Positions 1 through 17,341 of a stretch of 22,700 nucleotides of DNA are shown here, one piece after another. How positions within the stretch are numbered: position 1 is the first letter of the stretch; each line of letters begins with the position of its first letter. This stretch comes from a virus (lineage: Duplodnaviria; Heunggongvirae; Uroviricota; Caudoviricetes). The notes beneath the pieces were generated by a model. The model worked only from the letters and a program-made list of their open reading frames with translations. It ran no database searches and was not told the DNA's origin. Made by a program: the position numbers and the translations under genes. Location of the stretch: the IMG/VR virus record IMGVR_UViG_3300050581_000202; one strand, 5' to 3'.

Positions 1-771
1 TCATGGCTTCTCTCCTCTTTGCAGATGGCCAGCAATCAGGCCCGCAGTGGCAGTTGGCGAGCCGTCGCCGTCAAGGTCGTCTCCGCCAGCGCCCAAAGGG
101 GAAACGACTGCGGCGGCACGTTCCAGGCGCATCTCGAAGCTGCCCTCATCTCCGCTGACCAGTTCGCCCACGTCGCGCAGCAGGCGTTGGTATTCCGCGC
201 GTCCCTCCAGGCGCGATACGAGACTATCGCGCGAGGCCAAGACCTCTTCGGAGCGAATGATGTACTGGTCTACGCGCGCGAGGGCTGCCTTGAGTTCCGC
301 TATCTGGCCATCGAGATCGCGCAGTTGGCCGGTGGCTTGTTCATACCGCCGCATAGTCCGCATAGCATCCTTTTCGAGAACCTCACGGCTGTAGGGCTTG
401 TCCGCCACCATCACCACTGGACTCGGCGAACCTAGAAGACCAGCGATCTCCTTCAGCACCGCCTTGGACTTGGCAACTTCCTCCCTCAAGGTCACCCGCC
501 CGGCCTGGGCGCTTTCGAGGAGTGCCCCGACTCGGTCCCTACGCGACTTGGCCTCGTCAAGGCGCCGCGCCGCAGTGTCGAGCCGGTCCCGCAGGACCGC
601 TAGGTCGTGTGAGGCAACGCCCGCCGTGGCCTGGTGCAAAGCGTTGGAAACCGCGTCGTTTACGCGGCGGGTAATCGGGCGCCCTACCAGCACCCACACC
701 ATCGCGGCGATCACCGCCGCTAGAAATGCAAGCCGCAACAACGGCCGCAGCAGGAACTTAAGGATAGTCAT
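1..771 (-). CDS. Membrane-anchored long coiled-coil protein, PspA/IM30-like (256 aa)
   Basis: ATG at 771 with GGAGGT RBS (782-777). Hydrophobic N-terminal helix (LLRLAFLAAVIAAMVWVLV), then heptad-rich helices. Stop TGA at 3-1 overlaps an ATG at 4-2 that has its own GAGGAG RBS, so the operon continues left of the window. PspA-like label is inference from composition. Confidence 0.75.
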   Translation of the reverse strand: MTILKFLLRPLLRLAFLAAVIAAMVWVLVGRPITRRVNDAVSNALHQATAGVASHDLAVLRDRLDTAARRLDEAKSRRDRVGALLESAQAGRVTLREEVAKSKAVLKEIAGLLGSPSPVVMVADKPYSREVLEKDAMRTMRRYEQATGQLRDLDGQIAELKAALARVDQYIIRSEEVLASRDSLVSRLEGRAEYQRLLRDVGELVSGDEGSFEMRLERAAAVVSPLGAGGDDLDGDGSPTATAGLIAGHLQRGEKP

Positions 772-1093
772 GTCGCACCTCCGTCGCCTGGGGACTGAAG
801 CTGATCCAGCGGACCGTGTCGCACACGGCGTCTAAATGATGTAATGTGGCGGGGCGACGATCACGTTCGCAGAAAATCCCGCTTTTCGCGCTGGTCGCCC
901 ACGACCGGGGGCGTTCTCGTGCGCGTGGCCAGCGTCATGTACAATGGCAACCATTGACGGCAGAGATCGTGGCGACTGGACGAGAAATTCTGAAGATTTT
1001 CAGCACAAAGGACGGCGGCTGACACATATATCCTCGTGGGCGGGCTCCCCGCTGCCCCACCAATGGTCCAGCTAGAGCCCGACCAGGCTGGGC

Positions 1094-2494
1094 ATGCGCG
1101 TCGCCGCCGTGCGTAACACGGGTTATGTCATGGCGAGCGCACCAACAGGCACCGGCCGGCGGGGTCAGCCGTGCGGGGATTGCGTCCAGGAGTTGGAAGT
1201 GATTGCGCGCAGGTCGCTCCATCCGCGAATCGCGCCCATGGCCGCCAGCTTGGCAGTGGCGGTCATGGGCCGTGTGTGCGGTGCTGCAGTTGCGTCGGCG
1301 GCCCGTCAACCGTGCAAGATACGCGAGCGCGCGGGGCGCCGCGTGCGGGAGAGTGCCGAGCGGTGCAACTGGCACTTCTTCGTCTCGGGCGCTCTACGGC
1401 GCTGGGCTGACGACCCTGAACTGATAGCTGTGGCCGGTGCGGGTCTTGGGACTCGATTTGACGGGCAAGCAGGAGTTGTGGTGCGGGCGGCCGTGCTTGC
1501 TTGGTGCGAGCACGTCGCCACGGGCGGCAGGGCCAAGTCTGAGCCCGCGGTGCGGGTTTGGTTGGGGGAGCAGGTCGCTGTGCAGGTTCGGATTCGGCTT
1601 CTGCGCTACTTGGCCGCTGGGCTCTATCGCCGTTGGGGGAACGTCCTCACAGAACACGCTCGCGGCTTGCTGCCGCCCACCTACCTCTCGGGCAGCGAGG
1701 GAGCCCTGGTGCGTGAGACGTTGGCGCGGTTCATCCGTCGCTTGCTTTCGGACTCGGCCGCTCCTAGCCACGACCCGGCCTCGGCACAACTTCAGGAAAT
1801 CATGGCCGAATTGCAGCAGCGGCGCGAGGCTTTGGAGGGCGAGATCGCCAAGATCGCTCACGGGGAAAAAGAGGCTGCCAACAGAGGTGGGCACGGCCGG
1901 TTGTGGAATTACTCCCGCCGAAGACTCAGCATCTTGGACAGACCGACACCCGATACCGACCCAGAGAACTTCGTGCAACAGGCATACGAGGTTCTGCTCA
2001 AGAAGGCACACGGGTACGACTGGGAGGGGGCGATCGAACGCCGGGTCGTCTCTGCTGGCTTGCGCGGGACAATCCGGCAGCTCATCTTTGACACCGCGCG
2101 GCGACGAAGTGAGTTGCTCTTGCCCGACCCGCAGGTCGACGCTGACGACGACGACACGCAACCACGGCCTGAGGACCAGGTAGAAGGGCCGATGAATTCG
2201 GTTGCTGCGCGGTTGGAACTTGCTGACCTAACCGAGCAAGTGCTCCGTCACGTACCTTGCCTCCCTCTTCGTCGCGACTTTGAGAAAGTGCTTGGCATTC
2301 TCCAGGACGTAGCGGATGGGAGCAGGGTGGATGAAGCCTGCAAGAAACACGAAATGAGTCGAACACAGTTCTACGGTTTGCTGGGCCGCCTGAAGTCGTA
2401 TCTGCTCCGCGCATCATGGATACGGAACGCGGAGGAGGACGTTCCTCGCGTGAAGAGCCCCAACCGGCATGAGGAGAGCGACAGATGGACATAA
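1094..2494 (+). CDS. Atypical ECF-type sigma-70 factor with long N-terminal extension (true start uncertain, probably downstream of 1094)
   Basis: Region-2-like segment DPENFVQQAYEVLLKKAHGYDWEG...LRGTIRQLIFDTARRR and C-terminal HTH-like segment DGSRVDEACKKHEMSRTQFYGLLGRLKSYL. The first ~80 codons look non-coding-like. Overlaps the next gene by 10 nt. Confidence 0.65.
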   Translation: MRVAAVRNTGYVMASAPTGTGRRGQPCGDCVQELEVIARRSLHPRIAPMAASLAVAVMGRVCGAAVASAARQPCKIRERAGRRVRESAERCNWHFFVSGALRRWADDPELIAVAGAGLGTRFDGQAGVVVRAAVLAWCEHVATGGRAKSEPAVRVWLGEQVAVQVRIRLLRYLAAGLYRRWGNVLTEHARGLLPPTYLSGSEGALVRETLARFIRRLLSDSAAPSHDPASAQLQEIMAELQQRREALEGEIAKIAHGEKEAANRGGHGRLWNYSRRRLSILDRPTPDTDPENFVQQAYEVLLKKAHGYDWEGAIERRVVSAGLRGTIRQLIFDTARRRSELLLPDPQVDADDDDTQPRPEDQVEGPMNSVAARLELADLTEQVLRHVPCLPLRRDFEKVLGILQDVADGSRVDEACKKHEMSRTQFYGLLGRLKSYLLRASWIRNAEEDVPRVKSPNRHEESDRWT

Positions 2495-3789
2495 AGAAGT
2501 TGATTGAAGACTTGCAGGCAACTGGTGCCATCGCGCCGCCAGAAGCCTTTGATGAGAGTCCGGATACGAAGAAGTGGCTTGACGATATTATGCGCCGGGA
2601 AAATCGCCAAACGGACAACCGGCGTTCTAAACAAAAGGCATTCCTGGGGAACCTTGCCCCGTACGTGGCGATTCTCCTTGCCATTGGTCCCGTATATTAC
2701 GCACTATTCTCAGGCTGGCCCCGTTCCCCAGCGCCCGGTGCCGCAGTCGTCCAGTCTGCCCAGAATCCCACCGCACTCCTCGCACGTCTGATTCTCGCCG
2801 AGGATATCCAACGCCGCGAGCGGTCCCGCCTTGACGCAGCGTCGGTGGGCGGGCCTTACGCTCGGTATCTCTTGGCCTCTGGTGCAATCGCACAGGAAGA
2901 GATGAAATCAGCCGATCGAATCCGATATGCTGTTGCCACGGGGCAAAGCGACCTTCGATTTGAAGAGGTGGTGGCTCTCTACGGGATCGAACTTCTGCAC
3001 GGGAAAGGCGCATCCGACGGGCCTGTGCTCCCGGTCAACGGCGACCAGTATCCTGCGGAACGCGCACAAGATAGCAGACAAATAGCTGCGTATCTTTACG
3101 CTGAACTAGCGGCACGGCGCCTGCGGGACCTTCTCAATGTGCCACATGACAGCAATGCGGGCGCGAACGCTCGTCTGGTCGTGAGGGTAGAACCTGATGC
3201 GAGCAATCTTGGGTCTGGCGAAGTCCGTTTCGCCGTTGTGAACTCTCGTACTGGGGCGGTCGAGTCGACCGAGTCGCGTCGTTTCGTTGGGTCATTGGCT
3301 CCCATTTCTTTCCGCCAGTGTTTTCCCGAAGCGGACCACCTGCGCGGGGCTTCCATCTCGTCAGGCCAGACCGCAGAGGAAATCGTGATGACTTTCACGG
3401 CCACGGAGTCCCCGACTTCCTCCGCGTCGCTGGTTCGCCACAACGGATTAGAGTTGCTTTCGGAGGTATTCGGGAGTGATAAGAAGATCGAAGTGTATTT
3501 TGAGACGAAGGCGGACTTCACCGGATCTGGCCCGCTGCCAACGGTTCAGTTCGCCACGGGCGGCACCGATGTCGTGCAAACGAGCCTCCCGCCACAGCCG
3601 GTTAGCACGCAGTGGACTACCGTGGTAATCCCAGTTGATTTGGTCGGCTCTAGTCGTTGGCATGAAGGCCTAACAGTCACGGTCACAGGTCTGTCTCGCG
3701 GTGCTCCAGTCACGTTGCGAATCAGGAACGCCTACATCCGTGTGTTGGGCGACCGTGCGCAATCGAAGACCGCGCCGGGAACGGCATGA
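2485..3789 (+). CDS. Putative anti-sigma factor: short cytoplasmic N-terminus, one TM helix, large extracytoplasmic part ending in a beta-sandwich module (434 aa)
   Basis: GAGGAG RBS upstream and coupled to the sigma gene. Basic stretch, then TM (LAPYVAILLAIGPVYYALF). C-terminal TVQFATGG...QWTTVVIPV...LRIRNAYIR aligns by eye with the module in the downstream genes. Anti-sigma role is inferred from position and topology. Confidence 0.65.
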   Translation: MDIKKLIEDLQATGAIAPPEAFDESPDTKKWLDDIMRRENRQTDNRRSKQKAFLGNLAPYVAILLAIGPVYYALFSGWPRSPAPGAAVVQSAQNPTALLARLILAEDIQRRERSRLDAASVGGPYARYLLASGAIAQEEMKSADRIRYAVATGQSDLRFEEVVALYGIELLHGKGASDGPVLPVNGDQYPAERAQDSRQIAAYLYAELAARRLRDLLNVPHDSNAGANARLVVRVEPDASNLGSGEVRFAVVNSRTGAVESTESRRFVGSLAPISFRQCFPEADHLRGASISSGQTAEEIVMTFTATESPTSSASLVRHNGLELLSEVFGSDKKIEVYFETKADFTGSGPLPTVQFATGGTDVVQTSLPPQPVSTQWTTVVIPVDLVGSSRWHEGLTVTVTGLSRGAPVTLRIRNAYIRVLGDRAQSKTAPGTA

Positions 3790-3841
3790 AGTTCCATTGG
3801 ACAACACCCTACCACTCATTTTTTCGAAAAGGAGGAAAGAG

Positions 3842-4558
3842 ATGCGTTACGTCACAGGCTCTTCCATGGCAGTCTTGGTACTCCTGGTGCTGGCACCCCA
3901 ATTGCGAGCGCAGTACGTCCCGAGTGCGCCGCCTCTCCGCGACGGAGGTGGCGGCAAGGCGGAAACGCAGGCAGATGATGAGGTTGGCCAGCCTTACTAC
4001 GTCTTCGATGATAAGATTCACCATTTTTCGCCGGGTGGTTACATGCCTGGTGGTGACATCCGGGTGTCGCAGTCTCAGGTTTGCGAAACCGAGCCACACC
4101 GCGGCAAGTATTGCTACCGCGTCGTTTGTGACCTGCGTCAGGACGCGTGGATGGGGATCGCCTTCCTTCCGGGCGGCAAATGGACGCCGGTGCTGAAGAT
4201 CGACGTGTTTGAAAAGCTGGGCGGAGCGAAGAAGGGGGATCCGATTGTGCTCCGCTTCTGGGCGCGATCCCCGAACGGCGCCACTGTGCAGTTCAAAGTG
4301 GGAGGCATCGATGAAGACTCAGTTCAGTTTCCTGTCGCCTCCCAATGGGTTCATCTCACGAAGGACTGGCGGAAGTACACGCTTGACCTCACAGGCCAGG
4401 ACTTATCTGGGCTTCGGGCGGGGTTCATGTGGGTCATCAACATCGACAACAACCCAAGGCTTGAACGGCCCGAGTTCTGCACGGACGATATTTATTTCAC
4501 GAAAGTCAAGGCCCGGCCTCGCGACACCGTCAATGAAGGGACGCTTCGCGACGAATAG
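3842..4558 (+). CDS. Secreted protein made of a single carbohydrate-binding-like beta-sandwich module (238 aa)
   Basis: AGGAGG RBS at 3830-3835, ATG at 3842 (the ORF track start at 3701 is too early). Sec signal peptide (MAVLVLLVLAPQLRA/Q). Module motifs: PGGYM, PHRGKYC, LRFWARS, VQFKVGG, DWRKYTLDL, DDIYF. Confidence 0.8.
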   Translation: MRYVTGSSMAVLVLLVLAPQLRAQYVPSAPPLRDGGGGKAETQADDEVGQPYYVFDDKIHHFSPGGYMPGGDIRVSQSQVCETEPHRGKYCYRVVCDLRQDAWMGIAFLPGGKWTPVLKIDVFEKLGGAKKGDPIVLRFWARSPNGATVQFKVGGIDEDSVQFPVASQWVHLTKDWRKYTLDLTGQDLSGLRAGFMWVINIDNNPRLERPEFCTDDIYFTKVKARPRDTVNEGTLRDE

Positions 4559-4767
4559 GGTTGGCCGCCTTGTGGGATTTGGCGGCGGCGCAGGCCGCAG
4601 ACGCTGCACCGGTATCACAAAGCCTGTCGCTACCGGGTGTCAGGACGGGAATACCAACTCTATGGTTGCTTCGGCCAAGAATGGGCCCGTCATCAGGCGC
4701 TTCGTTATCTCGTTATCTCGGCTGGGGAGACGATGCGTCACGCCGAACTATTAGGAGGCCAAACCCC

Positions 4768-5856
4768 ATGTTGCGTCGACCCCAGCTTCTGCCTGTGGCC
4801 CTCGTGGCCGTTCTTTCTCTGCTAGCCAGCACGTGCCGCGCGCAGCTCGCGGGCGCCGTATGGAAGAAAGGGGTCGTGTGGCAGAAAGGGGACCATTTCG
4901 TCACGATGTATCCCGAGACGCCCGTGCGCGATGGAGACCGCACGCTCGCGACCTTGGCCGCCGGCGCGGAGTTGGTTGCCGAGGATGTCAAGGACGACTG
5001 GGTGCTGGTGACCGTGGCCCAAGGCCGGCGCCAGGTGCAAGGGTGGGTGTACGCGGTGCATCTTGACGATGAAGTCGGGCCGCGTCTTGTGCTTTACGAC
5101 GAAGGACATAGGGCCGGGTTTGTCCCCAGCGGCTGGATGCCCGACGGCCGGGGGCTAGCCCAGAACGTTCATTGTGAAGATAGCCCGCACAGCGGCAAGT
5201 ATTGTGTTCGGACGGCTTATCGGGCTGCTGACAACCCTTGGGCGGGGATCGCTTGGCTCCTGGACGGAGCCTGGTTCCCCAAGCGAGAGTTCAACCTCTA
5301 CGAAAAGCTCCGAGCCCATCAAGGCGACCCAATCGTCTTGCGCTTTTGGGCGCGCTCCAAACAGGGGGCTCGCATCGAGTTCTGTGCCGGCGGGGGCAAC
5401 GGCGATTCCATCCGTTTCAAACTCTGCCCGTTTGCGGAGCGTATGGAGAAGCTTCCTTTGCTGGATGGGAAGGAGGATTCGATGCGTTTGCCAGCGCGCG
5501 ACGTGGAACTCTCGGCCCAGTGGGAGCGCTTTCAGATCGACTTGTCCGACGCGGATCTCTCGCATGTCGTGCAACTGTTTGCCTCCACGGCCGCCTCGTT
5601 CAACGCTCCGGAAATTGAAGCTCTCTTTCGGAGGCCGAAGGAGCGAAGTTGCCAAGAGGCAGACGCAGAGTTCCGTGAAACCCTGAACCGGCTGGTGGTG
5701 GAGTGGGACCTCGACGACATTTACGTTGTGCGGGCGCGCAACCGGCCGCCGGTGCCGTTGGACCGAAAGGCGATTCGGCTCGGGCCCCCCATTCGCACTC
5801 CTCCGGCACCAATGCCTGTTCTCGCTCCTCCGGCGCCGATGCCTCGCGAAGACTAG
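4768..5856 (+). CDS. Secreted protein: SH3b-like domain, carbohydrate-binding-like module with insertions, Pro-rich tail (362 aa)
   Basis: AGGAGG RBS at 4753-4758, ATG at 4768. Signal peptide (LLPVALVAVLSLLASTCRA/Q). SH3-like pattern (ATLAAGAELVAEDVKDDWVLV...QGWV). Module motifs: PSGWMPDG, PHSGKYC, LRFWARS, WERFQIDL, WDLDDIY. Confidence 0.8.
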   Translation: MLRRPQLLPVALVAVLSLLASTCRAQLAGAVWKKGVVWQKGDHFVTMYPETPVRDGDRTLATLAAGAELVAEDVKDDWVLVTVAQGRRQVQGWVYAVHLDDEVGPRLVLYDEGHRAGFVPSGWMPDGRGLAQNVHCEDSPHSGKYCVRTAYRAADNPWAGIAWLLDGAWFPKREFNLYEKLRAHQGDPIVLRFWARSKQGARIEFCAGGGNGDSIRFKLCPFAERMEKLPLLDGKEDSMRLPARDVELSAQWERFQIDLSDADLSHVVQLFASTAASFNAPEIEALFRRPKERSCQEADAEFRETLNRLVVEWDLDDIYVVRARNRPPVPLDRKAIRLGPPIRTPPAPMPVLAPPAPMPRED

Positions 5857-5953
5857 CACCGCCCGGATGGCCGTGGGCCGCGGGGCGTGGTTTGCAGACT
5901 GACAAGAAAGTACAAATCGTTGTTACTTCATCGCGTCGGAAGGGAGGTTCCCC

Positions 5954-7600
5954 ATGCTTGTCTCGGATAGAAAGGGACCGGTCGTTTTGGCCTTAAGCCG
6001 CCGCCACGCGCTTCGTCATCTCGGCGCGGCCCTCATCGTGCTTCTGGGTGCGGGCGGTGCCCCGGCGCAACAGGTGCCCGGGATCGAGCCGCGTGGTACG
6101 AACCATGAGGCAGGTTCCCACAGGAACCGAAGTGCCCAATCGGATGCCGCCACGGAAGCCGGCCCTCCCTACTATGTATACGCCGACAAGCCCGCCGACT
6201 TTATTCCCTCCGGCTGGATGCCGGACGGGCGTGGGCTAGCACAAGAGGTCCGTTGCCAGGATGGCCCGCACGCGGGGAAGTATTGCGTCCGTTCGCAATA
6301 CCGCCCTCAAGAGAACTCTTGGGCCGGCATTGGGTGGGAGCTTGATGGTCAGTGGAATCCAAATCGCAAGTTAGACCTGTTCGCCAAGCTTCAGGCCCGT
6401 CCGGGCGATCGGATTGTGCTCCGTTTCTGGGCTAGGTCGAAGGATCGGGCGTGGGTCAAGTTCATCGCTGGAGGCGGCAACGGTGACTCGGTTCGCGAGG
6501 CGATCACCTCAAAGCCGGAATGGGTCCAGCTTGCCCCTGACTGGACCGGGTACGAGGTCGACCTGACGGGAAAGGACTTGAGCGGAGTGGTCCAGGCGTT
6601 TGCGTGTTTCCTTGAGCGCGATCGGAACGGCGGCGCGGGCAAGACGCCCCTGCAATGGGACCTCGACGAAATCTATTTCGTGCGATTGGCCCCTCCGGCA
6701 GCGAAAGCCCCGCGCCCGCCCGGGAGTTTTGCGGCCAACCGCGAGCGGTTCCATCGGAAACTTGCCACCCTGCGATGGATTGACTACAGCCCCAGCACGT
6801 TCAACCCAGACGCTGGCCAGGCTGTCTTGCCAGAGGACATCGAGGCCGACCTGAAGGCACTGGCTGCGCACGGCTTCCCACCGCAGCAGTCGGGGATTTG
6901 CACATACGGGTGCTCGCCACGCTTCGGTGGCGATAAGGTCCCCGAGATAGCACGAAGACTGGGTTTCTCCGGCGTGATTCTGGGGGTATGGTCAATCGAC
7001 GGGGATTCCGACGAGGTGCCAGTTGCACGGCGTTTGGCTGCCGATGGGCTGATTGACGCCGTGTGCATGGGTAACGAGGGGCTCTTCTTCTCACGCTACT
7101 CGTCCTCCCGCTTGGTGGCCGCGGTGCGTGACATGCGCGCAGCTACGGGACTCCCGATAAGCACGAGCGAAGTTATTGACAGCTACGGCAACGATATTCT
7201 TACGGACGAAAAAGAGATGGACTGGGTGTACCCTAACGTGCATCCCGTCTTTCACAATTACTCCGATCCGAAGAAAGCCGTTCAATGGATGCACGCCACC
7301 TTCAATAAGCTTGCGCAGCGTACTAAGTTGCCCATCCTGGTCCACGAGACCGGTTGGCCTTCGCACGGTCTGGCCCACCACAACGAAGACAAACAACGCG
7401 AGTTCTGGGAGCTTGCGCTCAAGTCCGGCCATCGGTTCGCAGTCTTTGAAGCGTTCGATCAGCCGTGGAAGCACGAGAAGCACCAAGGTGCGGATATCGG
7501 TACGTCCTGGGGTTGGTTTACTGCAAAGCGTCAGCCGAAAGCGGTCGTTAACGTGGTGAAGGAGGGCCAAGCTTTGCGGGTCGAGGGTTCTACGAAATAG
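5954..7600 (+). CDS. Exported GH17-family (exo-beta-1,3-glucanase/transglucosylase, COG5309-like) enzyme with N-terminal carbohydrate-binding-like module (548 aa)
   Basis: GGAGGT RBS at 5943-5948. Twin-arginine-like signal (SRRHALR plus hydrophobic core). GH17 catalytic motifs MGNEG (acid/base Glu codon 7076) and HETGWPS (nucleophile Glu codon 7346), plus NVHPVF and FEAFDQPWK. Confidence 0.85.
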   Translation: MLVSDRKGPVVLALSRRHALRHLGAALIVLLGAGGAPAQQVPGIEPRGTNHEAGSHRNRSAQSDAATEAGPPYYVYADKPADFIPSGWMPDGRGLAQEVRCQDGPHAGKYCVRSQYRPQENSWAGIGWELDGQWNPNRKLDLFAKLQARPGDRIVLRFWARSKDRAWVKFIAGGGNGDSVREAITSKPEWVQLAPDWTGYEVDLTGKDLSGVVQAFACFLERDRNGGAGKTPLQWDLDEIYFVRLAPPAAKAPRPPGSFAANRERFHRKLATLRWIDYSPSTFNPDAGQAVLPEDIEADLKALAAHGFPPQQSGICTYGCSPRFGGDKVPEIARRLGFSGVILGVWSIDGDSDEVPVARRLAADGLIDAVCMGNEGLFFSRYSSSRLVAAVRDMRAATGLPISTSEVIDSYGNDILTDEKEMDWVYPNVHPVFHNYSDPKKAVQWMHATFNKLAQRTKLPILVHETGWPSHGLAHHNEDKQREFWELALKSGHRFAVFEAFDQPWKHEKHQGADIGTSWGWFTAKRQPKAVVNVVKEGQALRVEGSTK

Positions 7601-7674
7601 GTTGGACCGTCTACAGAATCACCGGCCCGTTTTGCTCCAAGACAATGCCGTCGTTGTTGGCGAGGTGAATTCAC

Positions 7675-8631
7675 ATGAGTCGGCCAAGCAGCATTTCGAA
7701 GGCGAATGTTATCGTATTCGTGGCGGTTGCTCTAGCCTTTGCGAACCTCACCGGCTGCGCCCGGCAACCCGAGGACCGAAACGGAACAGACGCGGACGGC
7801 AGATCGCGGTCTTCTTTGGGCAAGGTATCCGCTAGTGATACCGTGCCTTTGACTCGGCCCAAACTGGACCGCGCGTACCCCGCGACAGATCCTCTATCGG
7901 CCGGCCGCGGGACCTACCTACCTTTGGCTGAAGGCAACCGTTGGACTTATCGGAAAACCATTCTGCCAGGTGGCCAGCCGCGTCTTTGGTCCATGTTTCC
8001 CGCTCCGAAGGAGAAGGGAGATCTCGTCATTTCGGTCGGTGGCAACCATTTTGAATCAGGCGTCACAGAAGAGACATATCTTGTTGGCAAAAGATCGTCT
8101 GACGGGCGGTGGGACGTGACCGTGACGAGCGATATGGCAAGAGACGGAAGATATGCAGGCAACTTCATGGGAAGCTCCGTCCAGCGTATATCATGGGGCC
8201 CCATGATAAAGAGGCCACGCCCCGACTTGATCGTGATCGATGAAGTCATCGTAATGAGCCGTTGGCCGCCCTACGGAGATGGACCGCTCGAACGAGTGGA
8301 CTACCTCCTCATAGAAACGAACACCTCCCGCCCCAGCGGCAAGCACGCTACACTCTGGACCGGGTGGTCGCGAGTTGAGGCAGAACATACATCCGAAGAG
8401 ATCCGGGTTCCGGCCGGACAGTGGCGCCATTGTATCAGAATGATCACCAACTTCGGCAAGGAACCGATCAAGAACACGAAAGCGCACAGAGAGGATGCGA
8501 CGCGCTGGTCAACGGTCTCGTATTATGCGCGAGATGTTGGCTTGATCAAGGAACAGCAAGTCGACCACGATGGCCGAGCAACGTACACAATGGAGCTGAC
8601 GAATTACTCCGTTCACGGTGCCAGCCTGTAA
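7675..8631 (+). CDS. Lipoprotein with DUF3108/TapB-like beta-sheet domain (318 aa)
   Basis: GAGGTG RBS; lipobox LTGC. Motifs YLPLAEGNRWTY, EEIRVPAG and YYARDVGLIKE are typical of the VPAG...GVGLVK families. Confidence 0.7.
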   Translation: MSRPSSISKANVIVFVAVALAFANLTGCARQPEDRNGTDADGRSRSSLGKVSASDTVPLTRPKLDRAYPATDPLSAGRGTYLPLAEGNRWTYRKTILPGGQPRLWSMFPAPKEKGDLVISVGGNHFESGVTEETYLVGKRSSDGRWDVTVTSDMARDGRYAGNFMGSSVQRISWGPMIKRPRPDLIVIDEVIVMSRWPPYGDGPLERVDYLLIETNTSRPSGKHATLWTGWSRVEAEHTSEEIRVPAGQWRHCIRMITNFGKEPIKNTKAHREDATRWSTVSYYARDVGLIKEQQVDHDGRATYTMELTNYSVHGASL

Positions 8632-8725
8632 TCGTGGACGAGGCGGCCAAGGTTCGGCTCGCAGACTTATTCCAACTTTGTGCGCGCCGCTTGACAGCTC
8701 ATACCGACAGGACGGGAGGTGGGCA

Positions 8726-9625
8726 ATGTCCCAGGTCATCAAGGGTAGCTGCCCGATGTGTTACGTTGCGGTCTATCTCTGTGGTATTCTGTCACAGTGT
8801 GTGCTTCTGACCGGATGTCAACCGGAAAGCAAGAAACCGCCGGAAGGGCAGACGGCACATTCAGTGTCGCAAGGCCATCCTATTCCGGCCCCGTCGAACA
8901 CGTCGAACGCCGAGACCTCTGGGCCGGAGTTGCACAGGACATTCACTAACACTGCGAAACTCTACGTGGACTCAGTGCCGGCCGGCGCAGACGTCTACGT
9001 GGAAACGCCTGAGCAGCCGAGACAGACAGATGAGTCGGGGAATCTGAAGTCGCAGGGCAAGACGCCGCTCACGCTTGACGTTCCGGAACGGCGAGAGGTG
9101 AAGGTTGCGATCGTGTGGGAAATGAAGGAGTACATCACCAAGGTCAAGCACCTCCCTTCCATGGACGGTTGGACCACACGATTCAGTGCCCCTCGGCCAT
9201 TTGGACAGAGCCCACTTGCTGCTTGGGACTATTTCTCGTTTGACACCTCGCAGACATGGGTCGTCCAATCGAAAGGGAATGAGATTCTCGCTCTTGGGCC
9301 CGTTTACAGCCTCGACGACTTTCCCGGCAACCGCTTGTGCGCCCTGTTTATCCCGCGAGGAATCAAACCATCCACGTTCCATAGCCTCATGCCAAATCCC
9401 GACTCATTCGAGATCGACTTTGCTGGATGGAAGAGGGACCTTCGCTATCGCGGCCTCTCGGAGGACCAAGCGATTGAAGCGGTTGAATGCCTGCGCCGTT
9501 GCGGTAAGTATGTAGCTATAGTCAAGGATCGGTCAAACCCCAACAAGAGCGTCTTGGTGGCGAGCACAGCACAGAGAACCAGTCCGCCTCGCTTCTTGAC
9601 GCAGACTCGTGTTCTCGACCATTAG
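8726..9625 (+). CDS. Lipoprotein with PEGA-like domain (299 aa)
   Basis: GGAGGT RBS at 8715-8720, ATG at 8726; lipobox LTGC. LYVDSVPAGADVYV...GKTPLTLDV is the PEGA pattern. C-terminal part unassigned. Confidence 0.7.
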   Translation: MSQVIKGSCPMCYVAVYLCGILSQCVLLTGCQPESKKPPEGQTAHSVSQGHPIPAPSNTSNAETSGPELHRTFTNTAKLYVDSVPAGADVYVETPEQPRQTDESGNLKSQGKTPLTLDVPERREVKVAIVWEMKEYITKVKHLPSMDGWTTRFSAPRPFGQSPLAAWDYFSFDTSQTWVVQSKGNEILALGPVYSLDDFPGNRLCALFIPRGIKPSTFHSLMPNPDSFEIDFAGWKRDLRYRGLSEDQAIEAVECLRRCGKYVAIVKDRSNPNKSVLVASTAQRTSPPRFLTQTRVLDH

Positions 9626-13833: not shown

Positions 13834-14097
13834 TCAGTCCAAGTTCAGTTCACGGAGCAGCTTCACCAGCACGTCGCCGTGGCACGCCTCGGGCTTGCAG
13901 TGGCAGCCCAGCCGCTTCCCGGCCAGTTCGGGCAAGGCGGCCAAGAGATCGGGGCATCGGCGGAGGTGAATCTCGTATAGCTTTATGACCAGCTCGCGGT
14001 CCCTATCCCGGCCGATCAGGAACGGGTTTCCCCACTTCGACGGCCGGGCGATCAGCACGTCGTATTCTTCGTGGTGGAGGTTGACGACTCGGGTCAT
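13834..14097 (-). CDS. DUF4326 domain protein (87 aa)
   Basis: Signature RPSKWGNPF and LGCHCKPEACHGDVL. ATG overlaps the sigma-factor stop (ATGA). Confidence 0.9.
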   Translation of the reverse strand: MTRVVNLHHEEYDVLIARPSKWGNPFLIGRDRDRELVIKLYEIHLRRCPDLLAALPELAGKRLGCHCKPEACHGDVLVKLLRELNLD

Positions 14098-14945
14098 CTC
14101 ACGCCGCCTGAAGCACGTTTGACGCCGGGTATCGGCTCCTTGCGGCTTCGGGCACTCTCAGACGTAGGAGTCGGCCATCCTCCTCGCGGTAAAGCCAAGA
14201 GCGGTCGGGGTTGGATGGAGGGGATACCGCAAGCGTCCCTTCTTTGTGGCGGCTCAGGGGCTCCTCGTCGATTGCCAGACGACAATTCGCTGCGACCGGC
14301 CAGATCATCAGCGATTGCCATTCCCTTGAGCCGCCGCCGGGCACTGCGGACCCGCGACCAGGTGGTGCTTTCTGACAGGTTCAGGGCCTTGGCCGCCGCC
14401 GGTATCGTGTACTCTTTCAGGTCTACCAGTCGCAGGGCCTCGGCCTCGGGCGGCGGCAGTCTTTCGACATACTCCTCCGCCTCGATGCAGGCTTGCTGCC
14501 GGGCCGGCGCACATTTTGGGTCTTCAAGGCTGTTGCAGCCGATGTCGTGGCCGTCGCCGTCGTAATCGCCGCTCGGTCCGCAGTCGCTGTCCCAGGAGAT
14601 CGTCCTGTGGTGGTCTCGCATTTGGGCCGTAGCCTTTTCGACGTGCTTGAGGAGATACCTCTTGGCCGCCTTGTGGAGCAGGCCGTTAACCGACCTGACC
14701 GGCGCGCGGCAGCGCATCACTGACTTGAAAACGTTTTGCAGGATGTCCTGAACAGCGTCGGTGGTTACGCCCCGTCCTTCGAACTTCGTTTCGATCTGCC
14801 GGCGGAGGAATCGTCGCAGGCCAGGGACGAGCCGATCATGGAGCACTTGAAACGCCTCGTGGTCCTGGTGCTGGTGCCATCGGTTGAGCAGGGCTTCGTT
14901 GCTTTCCTCTTTTGCGGGCTGGTCCAGATTGGTCGGCTTTTCCAT
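14094..14945 (-). CDS. ECF-type RNA polymerase sigma-70 factor with low-complexity C-terminal extension (283 aa)
   Basis: Probable ATG at 14945 (GGAG/GAGG upstream). Region 2 (EAFQVLHDRL...DAVQDILQNVF) and region 4 (ERLPPPEAEALRL...AAAKALNLSESTTWSRVRSARRRLK). Confidence 0.85.
   Translation of the reverse strand: MEKPTNLDQPAKEESNEALLNRWHQHQDHEAFQVLHDRLVPGLRRFLRRQIETKFEGRGVTTDAVQDILQNVFKSVMRCRAPVRSVNGLLHKAAKRYLLKHVEKATAQMRDHHRTISWDSDCGPSGDYDGDGHDIGCNSLEDPKCAPARQQACIEAEEYVERLPPPEAEALRLVDLKEYTIPAAAKALNLSESTTWSRVRSARRRLKGMAIADDLAGRSELSSGNRRGAPEPPQRRDACGIPSIQPRPLLALPRGGWPTPTSESARSRKEPIPGVKRASGGVR
14099..14308 (-). CDS. Possible 69-aa protein (MIWPVAANCR...) overlapping the sigma C-terminal extension in another frame
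   Basis: ATG at 14308 with AAGGGA upstream, starting just after the sigma region 4 ends. Its stop lies 1 nt before the DUF4326 ATG. Looks more protein-like than the sigma tail. Confidence 0.4.
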   Translation of the reverse strand: MIWPVAANCRLAIDEEPLSRHKEGTLAVSPPSNPDRSWLYREEDGRLLRLRVPEAARSRYPASNVLQAA

Positions 14946-15498
14946 AAAATCCTCATCTCCAGACGCGACTCGGTGATGGCACGAGGTAGGGGCGTGGCTA
15001 CCTGCCCCGCATACTTTCCCTGATCCTCGCCATGAAAACATGCGCTACGGTTTGCCTGCCAGCGGGCATCAGTTCAATTCTTTTGAGGAAAAATCTACTG
15101 AGCCGCTGCATGGCTTCCTCGGACTGTGCGAGGCCGTCAAAGCGGGCGAACAGACACCCGAAGCTGCGTAGGGTTCCGGGTTTTTGTCGCTTAGAGAGGT
15201 AGGACCGGACGGCGAAACGAATCTGGCGCACAGCTTCGCCTGTTTCGCTATATTTCCCAGTTTCACTTGCCGTCGGCGCTGCTTATGACGGTCGCGCCGG
15301 CGTCGACTCGTCTTAATGCGAGCGAAGGAGAGGGATAGCGCCATCCCAAGAGAGTCGTGGGGACGTTGGTTGACTCCCCGCCGGGAGCCGGTATCTTGAA
15401 GAGAGTCGAGGGCGCCCAACAACGGGCCGGGACCGAGGCTCGTACCGGCTAGGTTGCCGTGCTCGATGTTGGACGTCTGTTGGGCGCGGCGTGAGAGC

Positions 15499-15922: not shown

Positions 15923-16117
15923 CTTGCGCCTTGCAAATATAGCAAGTTTCTATCAAGCTGTATTGTATAGTTGTAGTAAGGCGTTGCGGCGATTCCGAAG
16001 GGTCGTTGCAGCTTCGCAGGGAGGCCGTGTAGCAGCCAGCCAGTCGTCTCGCTCGCCTGCCCCATCTACGTCCACTTGCTGCTCTGCCGAGCCCGCACCG
16101 ACTTGATAGGACTTGAT

Positions 16118-17341
16118 ATGGCCTCCATCGAACAAGACCCGGCCTCCGGCAACTGGCGCATCCGAATCTACTTCGACAAGAAGCAGTATTTCCGTTCCTG
16201 CGACACGACGGATGAGGACGCCGCCCGGCGCACCCTGGGCACCGTCGAAGAAACGATTTCCCTTCTCAAGAGGGGAAGGCTAGTCATCCCAGACGAAACG
16301 GATGACATCGCCGAGTTCCTGATTAACGGCGGGAAGGTGACGGAGAAGGCACCGAAGATGGTGCGAAAGACGCTCAAGGAAGTGATCGACGCCTACTTCG
16401 CAGCCATCCCCTCGGGGGCCAAGGAAGCGAACTCCTTGCTCACGGAGAGAATCCACCTGGGGCACTTCCAACGACTGCTCAAGGGCACGACGCCGATCCG
16501 GGCAATCGGGGTGCCGGCATTGCAGAAGTATGTCGTCGAACGGAGCGACGAAAGCGGCATCCGGGGCCGCAAGATCAAGTCCGGCACGATTCGGAAGGAA
16601 CTGGTCACGTTCGGTCAGTTGTGGCGGTTTGCCAAGGCAAACAACTGGGTCAGCACGGACTATGACCGCAAAGCCATCAAGCTGCCAAAGTCGGCCGAGA
16701 AGCCACCCTTCCAGACCTGGGAGGAAATCGAAGCCAAGGTCAAGGCCGGCGGCTTGACTGATGCGGAAGTCAGCGACCTGTGGGACTGCCTGTTCTTGCG
16801 AGGCAAAGAGATTTTGGCCTTCCTCACCTACGTCGAAAAGAATGGCAAGGCCCCTTGGATTCACCCGGCGTTGGCAATCGCAGCCTATACCGGCGCGCGC
16901 CGATCTGAGATCATGCGGTCGGAGTGCGCGGATTTCGACTTTCAGCGGCCGATGGTGCTGCTCCGCGAGAAGAAGCGAGAGCGAGGAAAAGTGACCTTCC
17001 GAACGGTCGATTTCCACGACGACCTTCAGACGATCATGCGGAAGTGGTTCAAGGAGGGACACCCCGGCGGCAAGTACACGATCTGCGCGGAGGCGAATGT
17101 TCCCCTAACGCCCGATGAAGCCGATCGCACCTTCCAGGCGACGATCGCCGGTAGCAAGTGGGCGGTGCTTCGAGGCTACCATGTGCTGCGGCACTCCTTC
17201 GCTTCGCTCTGTGCGATGAAGGCGGTGCCGGAGCACACGATTAGCCGATGGATGGGCCACGAGACCGAGGAAATGAAGAAGAGATACCGGCATCTCTACC
17301 CGGAGCAGACGAAGCGGGCCATGCAGAAGCTATTTGGCTGA
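16118..17341 (+). CDS. Tyrosine recombinase/phage integrase (407 aa)
   Basis: ATG at 16118 with AGGA RBS. N-terminal arm-binding-like beta segment (WRIRIYFDKKQYFRS). Catalytic set: R (YTGARRSEI), HxxR (HVLRH), H (MGH), Y (KRYRH). Confidence 0.95.
   Translation: MASIEQDPASGNWRIRIYFDKKQYFRSCDTTDEDAARRTLGTVEETISLLKRGRLVIPDETDDIAEFLINGGKVTEKAPKMVRKTLKEVIDAYFAAIPSGAKEANSLLTERIHLGHFQRLLKGTTPIRAIGVPALQKYVVERSDESGIRGRKIKSGTIRKELVTFGQLWRFAKANNWVSTDYDRKAIKLPKSAEKPPFQTWEEIEAKVKAGGLTDAEVSDLWDCLFLRGKEILAFLTYVEKNGKAPWIHPALAIAAYTGARRSEIMRSECADFDFQRPMVLLREKKRERGKVTFRTVDFHDDLQTIMRKWFKEGHPGGKYTICAEANVPLTPDEADRTFQATIAGSKWAVLRGYHVLRHSFASLCAMKAVPEHTISRWMGHETEEMKKRYRHLYPEQTKRAMQKLFG

Follow-up and report, generated by a model that had tools for sequence, protein, structure and literature searches.

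How do planctomycetes sense the polysaccharides that they encounter? These bacteria are good glycan degraders and lack SusC/D loci of the Bacteroidota type, and to our knowledge polysaccharide sensing among them is largely uncharted. Here we analysed a locus that raises this question, a group of five genes on one strand at positions 1094-7600 of a 22,700-nucleotide stretch of DNA (hereafter the window) that is recorded as an IMG/VR provirus (IMGVR_UViG_3300050581_000202). An original prediction, made by a model from the sequence, had described these genes as a self-contained beta-1,3-glucan system, in which an extracytoplasmic function (ECF)-like sigma gene overlaps the gene of a membrane protein whose C-terminus seems to be the same module as that found in the three exported proteins encoded behind it. 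Our results modestly favor a reading of this kind, namely a polysaccharide-sensing sigma/anti-sigma switch with a sensor of the carbohydrate-binding module (CBM) type, which heads an operon of binders of paralogous fold and a GH17-like enzyme.

The anatomy of the operon agrees with the original description. The stop codon of the sigma-like gene P0001 (TAA, 2492-2494) lies beyond the ATG (2485) of the membrane-protein gene P0002, giving a gene overlap of 10 nt, and the regulator gene is predicted to be translationally coupled to P0002. The P0002 protein consists of a polar N-terminus of 53 residues that ends basic, a single hydrophobic span (residues 54-77), and a further stretch of about 355 residues. 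Because the basic residues precede the hydrophobic span, the N-terminus is predicted to lie inside and the C-terminus outside. The three proteins encoded next, P0003, P0004, and P0005, have N-termini that resemble signal peptides (by eye, that of P0005 resembles a twin-arginine translocation signal), and each contains one copy of a common module of about 180 residues. The modules of P0003 and P0005 are 38% identical (BLASTP, E 2e-43) and those of P0004 and P0005 are 43% identical (E 1e-50).

The central claim, that the C-terminus of P0002 is this same module, had been made from an alignment by eye. An exhaustive phmmer search identified 18 relatives of P0002, whose C-terminal parts share a domain of ~200 residues (domain X). 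Pairwise BLASTP between P0002 and the modules was not significant (E 0.012 over 25 residues). Comparison of a profile of X (17 sequences) with a profile of the module (14 sequences) by hhalign gave a probability of 83.6% and an E-value of 8e-6, over about 70 columns that are located in the C-terminal halves of both domains and cover the same segments as the alignment by eye. The score of this match was 42.7, compared with 16.7 +/- 3.0 (maximum 29) in 100 block-shuffled module alignments and about 17 in reversed ones. AlphaFold2 models of domain X and the module (predicted local distance difference test scores of 89.4 and 83.5, respectively) are both jelly rolls of the CBM type and match the same solved chains, including 2c24 (CBM30; Z scores of 13.2 and 10.3 for the two models), 1v0a (CBM11; 13.1 and 10.4), 3f95 (an extra domain of an exo-1,3/1,4-beta-glucanase; 12.7 and 10.9), and 1gwk (CBM29; 11.5 and 11.5). 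In the ESM Atlas, two of the best matches of X are also among the top four of the module. One is a cluster of 616 aa, and the other is a planctomycete cluster that combines Glyco_hydro_2_C with the module (TM-score 0.56-0.59 to X and 0.71-0.75 to the module). Because the profile comparison, the models, the solved chains, and the Atlas matches agree, the two domains are best described as having one fold and, likely, a distant common origin.

The P0002 protein thus has a CBM-type outer domain rather than a different fold, and what stands of the central claim is the common fold together with a weak, non-random profile similarity over the aligned segments. Identity with the module does not stand, since X is a separate, distantly related family of its own. 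The wider proposal that one fold class serves as membrane sensor, free exported protein, and enzyme appendage is supported. In three relatives of P0002 (P0014, P0015, and P0032), the transmembrane (TM) span, domain X, and a true module are found in tandem on one chain. The modules of these fused forms group, with modest support (83/87), with the free modules that are encoded directly after the TM gene in two related loci, L006 and L001. A scan of metagenomes with a peptide pattern of domain X returned no relative.

Comparison of the gene neighborhoods further shows that the arrangement is conserved. Related loci were found in about ten metagenomic sequences and in one metagenome-assembled genome (MAG) of the order Pirellulales, where the locus (L007) is located on a contig of 1.97 Mb. 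The order of a TM-X gene, one or more module genes, and a GH17-like domain recurs in L001, L006, and L007. The TM-X gene is followed by two free modules and a stand-alone GH17-like gene in L001, by one free module and a GH17-like gene in L006, and by three module genes in L007, the last of which is fused to a GH17-like domain and is the orthologue of P0005 (73% identity over 531 aa). Module-sized genes also follow the TM-X gene in L005 and in the loci of P0015, P0021, and P0026, with the module confirmed for L005. On the other side of the TM gene, the sigma genes of L005 (182 aa), L006, and L007 have region-4 matches above the gathering score, and that of L006 overlaps the TM gene by 4 nt. Several of the other upstream genes are described here from their length and precomputed Pfam matches alone: the gene upstream of P0014 (450 aa) matches Sigma70_r2 and r4, the gene upstream of P0021 (438 aa) has weak r2 and r4_2 matches, and the cut gene upstream of P0015 has a weak r4_2 match. 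The genes upstream of P0022 (244 aa) and P0026 (191 aa) have no Pfam match, like the one in the window. Conservation of the neighborhood in Planctomycetota, which had been suggested as a check, was therefore observed, including in a Pirellulales MAG with a profile-verified ECF sigma gene upstream.

The relation between the first two genes is also reflected in a comparison with contigs of a close relative (run X2). The two sequences are about 87% identical over positions 710-1450 of the window. The following segment, 1450-2472, which holds the sigma-like core, is replaced in the relative (1027 unlike letters versus 1021 nt); the gene junction at 2472-2492 (21 nt) is kept; the segment 2492-2656, which encodes the first ~57 codons of P0002, is replaced again (172 unlike letters versus 163 nt); and beyond 2656, as far as 6954, the relative is 94-97% identical. 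At the protein level, P0002 and P0006 are nearly identical from about residue 93 onward, and the N-terminus of P0006 is like the N-terminus of P0017, a protein paired with a canonical ECF sigma. These comparisons suggest that the regulator core and the cytoplasmic and TM part of the membrane protein have been exchanged together between near-identical loci, a joint replacement that would be predicted for a matched sigma/anti-sigma pair. The close relative also carries 318 extra letters at 4635-4637.

By eye, P0001 contains a stretch resembling sigma region 2 (about 1964-2107) and a helix-turn-helix (HTH) resembling sigma region 4 (about 2327-2404). Its language-model features in the ESM Atlas score 0.97 to clusters with Sigma70_r2, r4_2, or ECF annotations (175-189 features in common), and its ten best family-bearing matches all agree on sigma-70/ECF. 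Residues 402-433, where region 4 would fall, give sub-threshold matches to HTH_28 and HTH_29 (E 0.004-0.017), and the true region 4 of the L005 sigma likewise gives a weak HTH_28 match at the same relative place. P0001 also occupies the position of the profile-verified sigma genes in the relatives, directly upstream of the TM gene. From these features we infer a sigma activity for P0001; the label ECF-like, which the original prediction had given to it, was not borne out, as no profile supports a sigma identity. A co-fold of P0001 residues 255-450 with P0002 residues 1-58 scored 0.24 against a mark of 0.34, which weighs neither way. The annotated start of P0001 at 1094 is probably wrong, because the alignment of 710-1450 with the close relative contains non-triplet insertions and deletions (+1 at 1143; -1, -2, -2, -2, -1, and -1 at 1288-1308). 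The codon-position GC pattern of the open reading frame (ORF) 1094-2494 is weak before ~1350, and an AGGAG at 1471-1475 lies 5 nt ahead of a GTG at 1481, our inferred start, which gives a protein of 337 aa.

The last 290 residues of P0005 form a GH17-like domain, and the predicted pair of catalytic glutamates was recovered. Residues E375 (in GNE) and E465 (in HETGWPS) align to those of the GH17 beta-1,3-glucanosyltransferase 4WTP and are invariant in four homologues; in the deposited variant 4WTR, the second of these positions is Ala (ATGWPS). Both glutamate motifs (GxE and ETGWPS) align in RmBgt17A (4WTP/4WTR) and 6FCG, and P0005 differs from these proteins in its very divergent sequence, its sub-threshold Pfam GH17 match, and its N-terminal CBM-like module.

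We found relatives of the module in 55 metagenomic loci, with 30-37% identity. They occur as standalone exported proteins of ~200-230 aa, as tandem doublets, in five fusions to TIM barrels of the Glyco_hydro_2_C type, and, in L002, as the extracellular region of a Ser/Thr protein kinase. Of 401 sampled Planctomycetota genomes, 14 carry the family, in most cases within proteins of ~600-650 aa. Its fold is a jelly roll like those of solved CBMs (CBM11, CBM30, and CBM4_9; PDB 1v0a, 2c24, 4bj0, and 3f95) at 8-14% identity, and it reached no Pfam family, with 17.6 bits to CBM_4_9 against a cut-off of 25.9. Unlike CBM11, CBM30, and CBM4_9, the module is also carried by kinase, caspase, and anti-sigma-like proteins. 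Such architectures would fit the behavior of a carbohydrate-binding module and of a portable sensor domain. Because the module joins other glycosidases, a kinase, and a caspase, its ligand specificity is not readable from the GH17 fusion alone.

Several individual members of the family were of note. In L002 (1-4317), the kinase whose ectodomain is the module precedes a free module protein and then a convergent PAS-GGDEF-HD protein, a locus that may represent a second signaling use of the module. A protein of 1760 aa in L052 (7140-12419) carries eight tandem copies, and four copies were matched in a protein of 1732 aa on contig C103 of genome G406. In L036 (7074-9314), the module follows a Peptidase_C14 (caspase) domain (E 3e-15) in one protein, a combination that would not be expected of a CBM-like module. 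The original prediction had also called P0004 an SH3-tethered binder. Residues 99-168 of P0004 have an Atlas feature lead of 0.91 to clusters named 'SH3 domain' (124-136 shared features), P0004 has no Pfam SH3 match at E<=10, and its orthologue in L007 is without this segment, so the tether was not confirmed and remains a language-model lead.

Gene anatomy, topology, folds, paralogy, the remote similarity of X to the module, gene order, and the fusion forms together outline a possible mechanism. The short cytoplasmic N-domain of P0002 would bind and hold the sigma-like regulator, and domain X would bind a glycan outside the membrane, probably beta-1,3-glucan or its oligosaccharides. Binding of the glycan would release the regulator, probably via regulated proteolysis, and the released regulator would raise the transcription of its own operon, so that the binders and the GH17-like enzyme would be made when substrate is present. 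Relatives have the module fused behind X, so P0003, the free module protein, may contribute to sensing. An extended version, which we regard as rather unlikely, is a two-part anti-sigma in which P0003 would be a detachable ligand-binding half that docks on X when loaded with glycan and triggers sigma release. The TM-X-module fusions would then be the one-piece form of the same device, and the kinase-borne module a portable planctomycete glycan sensor.

A number of observations weigh against the sensing switch. For the regulator, searches of P0001 against Pfam and NCBIfam and a six-frame Pfam search of the record (E<=10) gave no sigma profile match; region 2 of Sigma-70 (PF04542 or TIGR-type) was undetected at E<=1-10 in both the protein and the six-frame record search, and region 4 (PF08281/PF04545) was not matched in P0001. 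No homologue of P0001 was found by a word-indexed search or by phmmer against the PDB (E<=10), by tblastn against 50,697 phage records or within its own record, or in the Pirellulales MAG (G001), and hhalign found no match between P0001 and the sigma proteins of the neighboring loci. Residues 1-90 of P0002 have neither a Pfam anti-sigma match nor a Cys/His zinc motif (HxxxCxxC). Among the relatives, this motif is present in the N-domains of P0014 and P0015 only, the latter with a weak zf-HC2 match as well, and the N-termini of ten others gave no profile match. For the sensor, X and the module are similar over their C-terminal halves only (16% identity); beta-sandwiches are common and serve in protein binding too, as the MAM and ephrin-receptor matches illustrate; no ligand-contact residues were assignable; and the system is rare, with domain X in one of 401 sampled genomes of the order Pirellulales. 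For the enzyme, the Pfam GH17 (PF00332) score of P0005 was 20.8 bits against a gathering score of 28.2, its four homologues were likewise below threshold, and the best solved match of the domain is a transglycosylase, not a hydrolase. For the regulon, a k-mer comparison of the intergenic regions revealed no convincing shared ECF-type promoter. The beta-1,3-glucan specificity of the original prediction was thus overstated, as the GH17 assignment behind it is below threshold and the module is found on other glycosidases, a caspase, and a kinase as well.

Part of this evidence would also fit three other readings. As a beta-1,3-glucanosyltransferase, the GH17-like enzyme might remodel a glucan of the cell's own making, with the modules binding that glucan and the sigma pair reporting the state of the envelope and not a nutrient. 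The four-sequence profile of the domain matches the transglycosylase RmBgt17A (4WTP, E 6.3e-6) well ahead of the GH17 entry 6FCG (E 0.004), and ECF systems classically monitor the envelope (PMC8103513). The locus also has no transporter or sugar catabolism genes, for which reason the description of it as self-contained is not supported either. No glucan synthase is present in the locus or its syntenic relatives, however, the wider module family is mainly found on TIM barrels of the hydrolase type, and the system is too rare in the order for a core envelope function, and we therefore consider envelope maintenance an unlikely explanation. A further reading accepts the sigma/anti-sigma pair and takes X for a structural or protein-binding sandwich, for instance one that docks an exported partner, which would respond to another signal while the module proteins and the GH17-like enzyme are mere members of the regulon. 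Beta-sandwich matches at similar Z include protein-binding domains, namely MAM, the ligand-binding domain of EphA3, and domain III of a Cry toxin. In addition, X forms a conserved family by itself and stands in tandem with a true module in the fused forms, so that the two domains are not redundant. The best matches to solved structures are nevertheless mostly carbohydrate-binding modules, the nearest Atlas clusters of X are top matches of the module too and include the module-bearing glycosidase cluster, and the profile similarity of X to the module is non-random; a sensor blind to glycans seems quite unlikely on these grounds.

The remaining reading concerns P0001, which might be an orphan HTH protein that replaced an ancestral sigma factor and left the membrane protein uncoupled or tied to a regulator of another type. 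Such a replacement would account for the want of a sigma profile match at any threshold tried, for HTH_28 and HTH_29 as the only matches, for the failed hhalign comparison with the neighbors, and for the exchange of this very segment relative to the close relative. The anti-sigma N-domain was replaced along with P0001, however, and the 10-nt coupling was kept. Moreover, the Atlas features and all ten of the best family-bearing matches point to sigma-70/ECF, upstream genes that are long (438-450 aa) or Pfam-negative are found in other loci of the family too, and a weak HTH_28 match is what the true region 4 in L005 gives at the same relative place. We regard the orphan protein as improbable and keep the sensing switch as the preferred reading.

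The original prediction knew of no described system of this make-up, and precedents do exist. In Clostridium (Acetivibrio) thermocellum, the SigI/RsgI pairs are polysaccharide sensors made of a sigma factor and an adjoining membrane anti-sigma (PMC10328401; PMC6582324). The locus resembles them in having a single-pass anti-sigma-like protein with a short cytoplasmic N-domain and a CBM-type extracellular sensor (at the level of fold here), an adjoining sigma-like gene, and glycan-active proteins as the proposed output. It differs in phylum and envelope and in CBM family, and Pfam scans at E<=10 found neither RsgI_N nor SigI-type domains. The Asn-Pro autocleavage motif of RsgI is not conserved: N-P is present (residues 94-95) in P0002 only and reads I-P in P0006, P0017, and L007, and no similarity to the periplasmic domain of RsgI was seen in P0002. 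A further difference is that a fold related to that of the sensor recurs in the regulated genes here and that the sensor occurs in fused and split forms. In ECF52 proteins of Actinobacteria, such as SCO4117, one polypeptide combines a sigma factor, a zinc finger, a TM span, and a CBM, and ligand-triggered proteolysis has been proposed (PMC5826349). The likeness lies in ECF signaling that is tied to a carbohydrate-binding module outside the cytoplasm, and in the combination of a TM span with an anti-sigma-like element of the zinc-finger type. Unlike in ECF52, sigma and sensor are separate genes here, the CBM is of another type, and paralogous binders and a GH17-like enzyme are added; ECF52 is restricted to Actinobacteria, whereas this locus is planctomycete. 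By analogy, the locus would work like SigI/RsgI and resembles ECF52, and it is a member of neither.

The sigma24C/Rsi24C pair of C. thermocellum reportedly consists of an ECF sigma and an anti-sigma with a glycoside-hydrolase-like sensor module. If so, it has in common with this locus an ECF-type sigma and a membrane anti-sigma whose outer domain is drawn from the carbohydrate-active-enzyme repertoire; its sensor is said to be hydrolase-like and not a CBM-like sandwich, and it is said to have no paralogous free binders. The present locus is set apart by a sensor that occurs both fused and split, a module found again on a kinase, and an exchanged cassette. The locus offers a small, testable sensing unit for the study of polysaccharide sensing in planctomycetes, and the analysis defines two uncharacterized CBM-like families. 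One is the module, widespread in metagenomes; the other is X, rare and restricted to anti-sigma-like proteins. Fused and split sensors, together with the joint replacement, constitute natural experiments on partner specificity and on the recruitment of sensor domains. Should the module prove to bind beta-1,3-glucan, it would qualify as a candidate new CBM family.

Although the record is a provirus, gene order over 98-9617 of the window is that of the 1.97-Mb chromosomal contig of the Pirellulales MAG, with DNA similarity over parts. Both the 256-aa gene (1-771) and another gene, at 8618-9625, belong to the common stretch, and the phage integrase is located at 16076-17341. A reading of the operon as phage cargo was rejected on account of this synteny and the position of the integrase. 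The operon is thus host chromosome beside a prophage, the provirus record overshooting its left boundary, and the host is predicted to be an uncultured Pirellulales-like planctomycete. The source sample is from an anaerobic digester, and related DNA is found in bioelectrode and sludge metagenomes. The features of the operon are listed below.

Features of the five-gene operon in the window (about: approximate domain limits)
Feature	Position	Strand	Remark
Leader/divergent intergenic region	772..1480	+	Includes the first ~129 codons of ORF 1094-2494, probably non-coding
P0001, sigma-like regulator, ~337 aa from the inferred start	1481..2494	+	ORF open from 1094
P0002, anti-sigma-like single-pass membrane protein, 434 aa	2485..3789	+	
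P0002, predicted cytoplasmic N-domain	2485-2643	+	
P0002, TM span	2644-2715	+	Followed by a conserved juxtamembrane region and then periplasmic domain X
Domain X, CBM-type beta-sandwich, C-terminus of P0002	3181..3774	+	
P0003, free exported module protein, 238 aa	3842..4558	+	Module about 3971-4534; ATG start with strong Shine-Dalgarno-like motif ahead
P0004, exported, 362 aa	4768..5856	+	Possible SH3-like segment 4855-5064; module about 5062-5751, two insertions; ATG start with strong Shine-Dalgarno-like motif ahead
P0005, exported, 548 aa	5954..7600	+	Module about 6146-6706; GH17-like domain about 6728-7597; ATG start with strong Shine-Dalgarno-like motif ahead
P0005, catalytic Glu codons	7076-7078 and 7346-7348	+	

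On the + strand, a promoter scan revealed no site of the sigma-70 type, and no tRNA genes were found in the window, L001, L005, L006, or L007. Runs labeled 'METAGENOMIC RNA-Seq' contain 151-nt pieces identical to the locus; because these pieces are probably DNA, we do not take them as evidence of expression.

The genes that flank the operon were also compared. On the minus strand at 1-771, the divergent 256-aa protein has an N-terminal hydrophobic span and no Pfam match, and its counterparts at the corresponding place in L005 and L007 match it with 70% identity, which makes it a conserved neighbor of the operon. Behind the GH17 gene, at 7675-9625, two more genes on the same strand (318 and 335 aa) belong to no clear family, and only the second of them (335 aa) has a counterpart behind the GH17 gene of L007, where it is a lipoprotein-like gene. 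A second sigma-like protein of 315 aa, with Sigma70_r4_2 above threshold (E 1.6e-8), is encoded at 14094-15041 on the minus strand, in a group with a superfamily 2 helicase between the operon and the integrase. In another organism, an integrase is located beside the same sigma locus (L005, 1-2564). Next to this integrase, short fragments form a mosaic that matches distant parts of the window's prophage (58.7, 75.9, 81.0, and 83.2-83.6 kb) with 75-87% identity; one of them is a piece of a GpA terminase. The mosaic resembles the decayed remains of a related prophage, on the opposite side of the locus.

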